Source: Escherichia coli | GTDB lineage: Bacteria; Pseudomonadota; Gammaproteobacteria; Enterobacterales; Enterobacteriaceae | NCBI RefSeq assembly: GCF_003334355.1 | Contig: NZ_QOWP01000001.1 | Strand: one strand, 5' to 3' | DNA length: 64,000 bases | Shown here: positions 13,607 to 13,814 of the stretch, piece after piece | Numbering within the stretch: position 1 is the stretch's first letter | Layout: every line of letters starts with the position of its first letter | The notes under the pieces: model-generated | What the model saw: only the letters and a program-made list of their open reading frames with translations | Told to the model about the DNA's origin: nothing | The model's database searches: none | Made by a program: the position numbers and the translations under genes

Positions 13607-13814
13607 AGGCCGGGTGGGTAATACCATCCGGCCAAAGATTGTCAAGTAAGTGCGCTTTGTTGATGCCGGATGCGGCGCGAGCGCCTTATCCGTCCTACAA
13701 AACATCGCAAATTCAATAGATTGCAATGCACTTGTAGGCCTGATAAGCGTAGCGCATCAGGCAATTTGGCGTTTGTCATCAGTCTCAGGCCGGGTGGGTA
13801 ATACCATCCGGCCA
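13607..13814. repeat. REP/BIME cluster bracketed by two identical 28-bp direct repeats
   Basis: aggccgggtgggtaataccatccggcca occurs at 13607..13634 and 13787..13814 (each a hairpin); between them are two inverted REP units (gatgccggatgcggcgcgagcgccttatccg and gtaggcctgataagcgtagcgcatcaggc). Confidence 0.8.

Follow-up and report, generated by a model that had tools for sequence, protein, structure and literature searches.

BIME-1 elements, also described as RIP or RIB (Gilson, Bachellier, Hofnung; Oppenheim; Boccard), consist of one Y-type and one Z-type palindromic unit (REP) placed around a long IHF-binding linker. Found at the 3' ends of genes and between convergent genes, they are defined in the literature by this composition, by a size of about 150 bp and by their single-copy arrangement (PMC3333891; PMC2817692), and their linkers bind IHF (PMC3333891). 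Whole BIME-1 elements are documented as present in some isolates and absent from others (Bachellier 1997, as cited in PMC1187871). According to a 2026 preprint, the mechanism by which REP and BIME sequences insert is not fully established, and 78 REPs lie within predicted bidirectional terminators.

Two other classes of small elements invite comparison. REPINs, mobilized by RAYT proteins, are likewise non-autonomous and likewise made of an inverted REP doublet with a spacer. E. coli carries a single RAYT gene, whose product, TnpA_REP, acts on single-stranded DNA hairpins: it binds the hairpins of REPs, cuts single-stranded DNA on their 5' or 3' side and requires C|T at the cleavage site in vitro (PMC3333891). 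Transposition by Y1 enzymes of the IS200/IS605 type leaves no flanking direct repeats (PMC3333891; PMC2817692), and target duplications are not mentioned in the REPIN/RAYT papers of the accessible literature (including PMC2817692). The second class comprises the bacterial MITEs (Correia, ERIC/IRU, RUP), which share with BIME-1 a small size, terminal inverted repeats, flanking direct repeats, an intergenic location and presence/absence polymorphism. Target duplications of MITEs are short and of fixed length (2-10 bp), being set by the transposase. Correia elements have a central IHF site as well (PMC3184786).

A BIME-1 element between two copies of a hairpin

The window analysed here is the whole of a 64-kb stretch of E. 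coli DNA. In it, the 28-nt sequence AGGCCGGGTGGGTAATACCATCCGGCCA occurs at positions 13607-13634 and again at 13787-13814, with a start-to-start spacing of 180. The two copies are 100% identical, in agreement with the earlier note, which had described them as an exact, hairpin-forming direct repeat. A search tolerating up to three mismatches finds no further match in the window, and none at all in 100 shuffles. Each copy can form a 10-bp stem with a 6-nt loop (stem-loops 13608-13633 and 13788-13813); the predicted RNA hairpin has a stability of -22.6 kcal/mol on the + strand, where the stem includes one G.U pair, and of -16.7 kcal/mol on the - strand, where it includes an A.C mismatch. The bracket lies between convergent genes, named arcC/yqeA and yqeB after the annotation of matching genomes. 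The yqeA coding sequence (12669-13601, + strand; ORF list, annotation in matching genomes and PF00696 homologs) specifies an arcC-like carbamate kinase; yqeB (ORF list and annotation in matching genomes) occupies 13822-15447 on the - strand. As judged by repeat search, allele alignment and folding, the left hairpin copy starts 5 nt past the yqeA stop codon and retains the upstream TTTAAA flank of the original terminator, while the right copy ends 7 nt from the yqeB stop codon and retains the downstream TTTTCATTT flank.

Between the repeats is a 152-bp segment (13635-13786, + strand) consisting of an A followed by AGATTG...CATCAGTCTC, which is missing in the empty alleles described below. It contains the pair of inverted REP units already noticed in the initial reading: a Y-type unit, GCCGGATGCGGCGCGAGCGCCTTATCCGTCCTAC, at 13665-13698 on the + strand, recovered as inverted repeat I1 and as a weak match to the naRNA4 family of Rfam, and a short Z-type unit in inverted orientation, GTAGGCCTGATAAGCGTAGCGCATCAGGC, at 13734-13762 on the - strand, found by inverted repeat search. 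We take this short Z variant to be the one called Z1. The two units are separated by a 35-nt linker (13699-13733, + strand), assigned by motif match to the long L motif, in which an IHF-like site is predicted at 13711-13723 (ATTCAATAGATTG, one mismatch to WATCAANNNNTTR). The Z unit contains GTAGG and the Y unit CCTAC, sequences relevant to the 5' GTAG tetranucleotide recognised by TnpA_REP. Folding back of the whole unit as single-stranded DNA is not significantly more stable than that of shuffled sequences (z = -1.38).

When used alone as a query, the 152-bp insert matches other loci in every E. coli genome, from position 1 or 2 to position 151 or 152, at 84-89% identity. The full-length paralogs retrieved lie at pitA/uspB, satP/mog, fepA/entD, gloC/aspC and tsx/yajD (84-90% identity), and the linker with its predicted IHF-like site is conserved in them. 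The insert has one Y-type and one Z-type unit in inverted orientation, resembles other family copies over its full length and stands as a single unit between yqeA and yqeB, with no tandem Y/Z array of the BIME-2 pattern. To judge from its sequence, it is a complete, ordinary BIME-1 (RIP/RIB) element. The element itself differs in nothing from those described previously; the part that is undescribed in the accessible literature is the hairpin bracket.

BIME-1 elements terminate in inverted repeats of the form AGAYTG...CARTCT. In the family consensus, the left end reads (C)AGATTGYTGACAAAG and the right end GTCATCAGTCTC, whose reverse complement is GAGACTGATGAC, and about 9 of 11 positions match; AGATTGTTGACAAAG was considered as the element-end sequence. 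The left end of the present insert is slightly degenerate relative to the family consensus. CT dinucleotides are found 1-2 nt inside both ends of the element (CAGTC|TC and, on the other strand, CAATC|T).

The search of the insert against Rfam returned sub-threshold matches to REP-derived sRNA families only (ES036 and naRNA4). The ES036/CssrF match covers the linker (13699-13741, + strand) and scores 36.3 bits against a gathering score of 37.6, which suggests that the ES036 family was built from BIME-1 linker transcripts. A distinct RNA gene in the insert was rejected, all Rfam matches being below threshold. Elsewhere in the window, a second REP/BIME cluster is found at 43500-43700. Its Y- and Z-type units match the insert in part (for example 43599-43632, at 88%, and 43644-43685), and a full BIME-1 unit is absent from it.

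Filled and empty alleles in E. coli

A 30-nt query made of the 28-mer and one base on each side was compared by blastn (E<=10) with 5,426 complete E. coli genomes. Matches were obtained in 5,167 genomes, at 6,815 places, with one or two per genome: two copies in about 1,648 genomes and one in about 3,519. None of the 5,426 genomes has a copy outside the yqeA-yqeB locus. This search, which the earlier note had proposed, shows the 28-mer to be specific to its locus; with at most two copies per genome, at this locus only, it was rejected as a genome-wide repeat or a common standalone terminator family.

The comparison of strains suggested on the same occasion revealed that the bracketed segment is polymorphic within the species. 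A 721-bp query across the spacer aligns over only 541 bp in many genomes, and a query for the left junction is matched in full in 1,649 of the 5,426 complete genomes. Alignment of empty alleles (O157 FDAARGOS_293, WEM25, MINF_9A and R4) showed that exactly 180 bp are missing from them, accounted for by one 28-mer together with the 152-bp segment. At both edges, the polymorphic segment agrees with the dispersed-repeat unit to within a base. The unit is absent in about two thirds of E. coli genomes. The filled state, found in about 30%, includes K-12 MG1655, whose spacer measures 220 bp (3012394 to 3012613), and BL21.

In the empty allele, the spacer is 40 bp long and reads TAA-TTTAA-[hairpin]-TTTTCAT-TTA, with a single hairpin between two convergent stop codons; the target-site sequence is TAATTTAAAGGCCGGGTGGGTAATACCATCCGGCCATTTTCATTTA. 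The hairpin is preceded by A-rich and followed by T-rich sequence (TTTAAA-hairpin-TTTTCATTT), so that a GC-rich hairpin followed by a T-run is predicted on each strand. Such an arrangement is that of a bidirectional intrinsic terminator, which would be shared by yqeA and yqeB, and as in such terminators the A-run, the GC-rich hairpin and the T-run fill the 40-bp spacer. The filled allele differs from bidirectional intrinsic terminators in that the terminator is split into two copies with one A/T flank each. On the + strand, AAAGAUUG comes after the left copy and UUUUCAUUU after the right; on the - strand, UGAGACUG follows the right copy and UUUAAAUUA the left. The terminator scan called only the right copy as an intrinsic terminator on the + strand. 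The U-tract of each gene would now come after the distal copy of the hairpin, and transcripts would read through the proximal hairpin and the BIME-1. The 3' UTRs of yqeA and yqeB would each be longer by 180 nt and would now contain REP hairpins.

At least three variants of the empty allele exist: one with a GGGT stem and a TTTAAA flank, one with a GGGT stem and a TTTTAA flank, and one with a GGAT stem. The last is a perfect palindrome, GGCCGGATGG, present in some empty alleles (MINF_9A and R4; L003 and L004, around 555-585, compared with window position 13613), and its - strand stem is perfectly paired. In the GGGT form, GGCCGGGTGG, which is found in the filled allele and in the other empty alleles, the A.C mismatch weakens the - strand RNA hairpin (-16.7 versus -22.6 kcal/mol). 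Filled alleles have the GGGT form in both hairpin copies and are nearly monomorphic, the best matches to the insert being at 99% identity or more in 1,630 cases and at 95-99% in 18. In one filled genome, MSB1_7C (L005, around position 790), the right 28-mer copy has lost 1 bp (GGCCGGG-GGG). Position 13580 of the window is represented there by the C variant, and the filled allele is thus not tied strictly to a single flanking haplotype.

Hairpin brackets at other BIME-1 loci

At several paralogous loci, BIME-1 is again found between two copies of a hairpin that is specific to the locus. The repeat is GAGCGGGTCAG(TTTA)CTGGCCCGCTT at pitA/uspB, (GAT)CCCCCCGC...GGGAT at satP/mog and AGCCCGCTTTT.A.GCGGGC at gloC/aspC. 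Two of these loci are polymorphic as well among the 5,426 genomes searched: the span is 561 or 388 bp at pitA/uspB (1,940 genomes filled) and 561 or 390 bp at gloC/aspC (2,811 filled), and the empty alleles of both have exactly one A-run/hairpin/T-run.

The survey was extended by scanning for the conserved right end of BIME-1 in one genome per species. At least 120 loci were obtained, mostly from E. albertii, E. coli, E. whittamii, other Escherichia species and Pseudocitrobacter, among which 62 single-copy, non-orthologous listed loci have a complete core. For each of these, the left flank was aligned locally with the right flank of the same locus, the control consisting of 3,782 mismatched left/right pairs. 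Flanks were anchored on the conserved core, since many copies start at 13-15 or end at 139/146; with fixed element ends instead, only 7 of the 62 listed loci scored, hairpins there being counted as element sequence. A flank score of at least 12 was reached by 28 of the 62 listed loci (45%) versus 1.45% of the 3,782 mismatched pairs, and a score of at least 14 by 25 loci versus 1.0% of the mismatched pairs. The earlier note had considered bracketing direct repeats unusual for a simple BIME; for BIME-1 these figures indicate otherwise.

Among the positive listed loci, the repeats measure 16-36 nt (median 22) and correspond to a stem-loop with 0-2 additional nucleotides per side. The left repeat ends directly before (C)AGATTG and the right one begins directly after CAGTCTC; the adjoining 8 nt are rich in A on the upstream side (mean 4.6 A) and in T on the downstream side (mean 4.1 T). 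In about half of the listed BIME-1 loci a flanking repeat is lacking, the repeat being decayed, one-sided or absent, from which it follows that the duplication either decays or is not obligatory. The fepA/entD locus, where the genes are in tandem, has no flanking repeat, and tsx/yajD has it on one side only, the left (tsx) terminator hairpin alone being present. Judged by these flanks, the hairpin bracket is a general property of BIME-1. At tsx/yajD (L011, 520-545), the right end of BIME-1 is truncated and runs straight into the annotated yajD stop codon, the element supplying the final bases beside or overlapping the coding sequence.

BIME-1 is usually described as single-copy. In Escherichia sp. 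MOD1-EC7003, tandem (hairpin-BIME-1)n-hairpin arrays of at least five units were found (L122, 11400-12413; L131, 7400-8400), the same hairpin recurring between units at periods of 182 and about 170 bp. Arrays like these would be expected to arise from unequal exchange between flanking repeats. In a further array from this strain (L132, reverse strand, about 200-1150), the hairpins are different from one another (AGACCGCTTCCTGAACGGCCT, AGCCTCCTTTTGGAGGCT and AGGCCGAACCCTGCCT), and AGGCCGAACCCTGCCT resembles the flanking repeat of L127 and L119. This array hints that blocks made of a unit and its hairpin move or recombine between loci. Sequences that resemble BIMEs and contain palindromic units of the enterobacterial type were also retrieved from Oscillospiraceae and Bacteroidales MAGs and from a 184-bp contig of Bacillus coahuilensis (L013, L033, L087). 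Their occurrence in unrelated phyla most likely reflects contamination by, or mis-binning of, Enterobacteriaceae DNA.

Origin of the bracket

Comparison of the alleles shows an insertion accompanied by duplication of the target hairpin, giving hairpin/BIME-1/hairpin. We consider it probable, at roughly 0.8, that an ancestral 40-bp spacer with one terminator received a 152-bp BIME-1, the whole 28-bp hairpin being duplicated in the process through what would be cuts at the feet of the hairpin. That the event was an insertion with a 28-bp target duplication is argued by the fact that empty alleles lack exactly 152 + 28 bp and that the insert is a unit of a dispersed family. That the ancestor had a single hairpin is argued by the abutment of the family-unit edges on the repeats and the identity of both repeat copies, by the low diversity of the filled allele as against empty alleles that are commoner and more diverse, and by the one-hairpin arrangement of Trabulsiella as well (in T. 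odontotermitis, a 37-bp spacer with one hairpin of different sequence and a T7 run). The bracket can then be viewed as the mark of a duplication tied to insertion of a mobile element, in line with the duplication or transposition footprint suspected from the window. The search for YqeA homologs yielded no Escherichia outgroup for the yqeA-yqeB locus, only distant genera at 76-80% nucleotide identity, so that the polarity is argued from diversity within the species and from the signature of insertion. Among these distant genera, one has a single, different hairpin and another an unrelated REP-like palindrome in the spacer. In two Enterobacteriaceae sequences with about 80% nucleotide identity to the window (L141 and L142, 2434-2540), the yqeA-yqeB spacer contains CTTATCGGGCCTACA...TGTAGGTCCGATAAG and lacks the 28-mer; it looks like a convergent spacer colonised independently by another type of REP.

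Each hairpin copy is stable and lies 5-7 nt from a stop codon, as would be expected if the two were independent terminators, one per gene, made or kept identical by selection or gene conversion and unrelated to the REPs. This explanation is contradicted by the empty alleles, where a single hairpin is shared, by the lack of a U-tract, on the gene's own strand, after the proximal copy of each gene following insertion, and by the recurrence of the same bracket at dozens of unrelated loci, with locus-specific hairpins exactly abutting the element ends; we regard it as extremely improbable. Similarly negligible is the idea that hairpin and BIME-1 were recombined in as a block from another locus, with no target duplication. 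The different hairpins between the units of the L132 array suggest that such blocks may sometimes move, but the 28-mer is found at no other locus in 5,426 genomes and the insert shares only 84-89% identity with its closest paralogs. More serious, if still quite improbable, is the proposal that hairpin/BIME-1/hairpin is the ancestral state and that all empty alleles derive from it by deletion between the 28-bp repeats, through RecA-independent slippage or single-strand annealing. Direct 28-bp repeats that are each self-complementary and separated by 152 bp lend themselves well to deletion; the (hairpin-unit)n arrays testify that repeats of this kind recombine, and an identical 1.5-kb haplotype is found in both the filled and the empty state. 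However, loss alone leaves unexplained how two identical copies came to abut a family unit. Empty alleles are moreover the majority (about 3,519 versus 1,648) and present three hairpin/flank variants, whereas filled alleles are nearly monomorphic with identical repeat copies, and Trabulsiella has the one-hairpin layout.

Insertion into a one-hairpin spacer is compatible with some reversals. Within one strand, the two repeat copies, being self-complementary, can anneal to each other as well, and direct repeats of this nature would allow precise loss or tandem amplification; secondary precise losses are likely. The empty allele of WEM25 is 100% identical to the window flanks over 541 bp. Over 8 kb per side, WEM25 is as diverged from the window as O157 is (99.4%). 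The window, O145:H28 RM13516 (filled, like the window) and WEM25 (empty) differ by about 0.7-0.8% over 8 kb and are identical only across 12595-14082, the 180-bp indel aside, making them three mosaic haplotypes. Since this 1.5-kb haplotype is identical in the filled and empty states, the gain or loss must be younger than any local SNP. WEM25 was rejected as a proven revertant, the haplotypes being mosaic; a very recent gain and a precise loss both fit. Later precise losses at yqeA/yqeB are plausible.

As to how the hairpin came to be duplicated, a structure-directed insertion can be envisaged in which an intrinsic-terminator hairpin or cruciform is cut at its feet on both strands, so that the length of the duplication equals that of the hairpin. 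The simplest mechanism would be a pair of symmetric breaks, one per strand, 0-3 nt outside the stem and on the same side of each strand's hairpin; here, with cuts where the T-run begins, 0-3 nt 3' of the stem, the nicks would be offset by the full palindrome. Each end would then bear one complete hairpin as an overhang, the element would be joined to both ends, and repair synthesis would copy the hairpin on both sides to give hairpin/element/hairpin. This geometry, deduced from the junctions, would be equivalent to cleaving an extruded cruciform at its base. We advance the model tentatively and would give it appreciably less than an even chance of being correct. RAYT/TnpA_REP, a Y1 transposase acting on single-stranded hairpins, would be the obvious candidate enzyme, given its binding to REP hairpins and its cleavage of single-stranded DNA next to them. 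Yet the 28-bp exact duplication found here departs from REPIN/RAYT insertion, which is without target-site duplication. Since direct repeats are not among the reported products of Y1 transposition, the footprint is not one that RAYT would predict, and the statement in the earlier note that REP-associated transposases leave comparable structures runs counter to the literature (PMC3333891; PMC2817692). A second discrepancy concerns the cleavage site: the target cuts deduced here do not reflect the C|T requirement reported in vitro, the junctions being mostly N|T with a variable first base.

A different enzymology is implied if BIME-1 is a classical MITE, moved by a DDE-type transposase that cuts the flanking duplex with a short fixed stagger across an extruded cruciform, with a central IHF-induced bend pairing the terminal inverted repeats. 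The duplication would then amount to the stagger and the entire palindrome together. BIME-1 does have short terminal inverted repeats, (C)AGAYTGWTGAC, together with a central predicted IHF-like site in keeping with the IHF binding reported for BIME-1 linkers (PMC3333891), and the repeats reach only 0-2 nt past the stem on each side. Nonetheless, a transposase whose ends match is not known, and none was found here; MITE signatures are, according to reviews, missing from REPs (PMC3184786), and the extra nucleotides beyond the stem are not strictly constant. The duplications, 28 bp here and 16-36 nt elsewhere, track the local hairpin, unlike the short ones of fixed length that characterize MITEs. 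A fixed-stagger transposase acting on ordinary duplex is disfavoured because the length of the duplication follows the size of the target hairpin. We therefore consider the MITE explanation unlikely.

The BIME-1 element and its presence/absence polymorphism belong to an already known class; the family-wide hairpin footprint may be the new part. In the accessible literature, a BIME-1 bracketed by a duplicated terminator hairpin is not stated; a 1997 paper by Bachellier in Genetics, which reportedly describes "excisions of a whole BIME-1" at three loci, may show such repeats. The yqeA/yqeB insertion appears young, because the repeat copies are still identical and the empty allele persists on an identical 1.5-kb haplotype. 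It offers a clean product of the event, with identical repeats and with the pre-insertion allele, or a perfect revertant of it, still segregating. That the footprint depends on the hairpin, at many loci and in several genera, narrows the likely mechanism to symmetric cuts at the hairpin feet. If true, cutting at the hairpin feet would provide a testable model for the colonisation of gene 3' ends by REP and BIME sequences, would account for their frequency at terminators between convergent genes and for the 3'-end bias of BIME-1, and would predict easy precise loss and tandem amplification. Filled and empty strains, for their part, constitute a natural, isogenic-like contrast in which the effects of REPs on transcription termination and mRNA stability can be compared.
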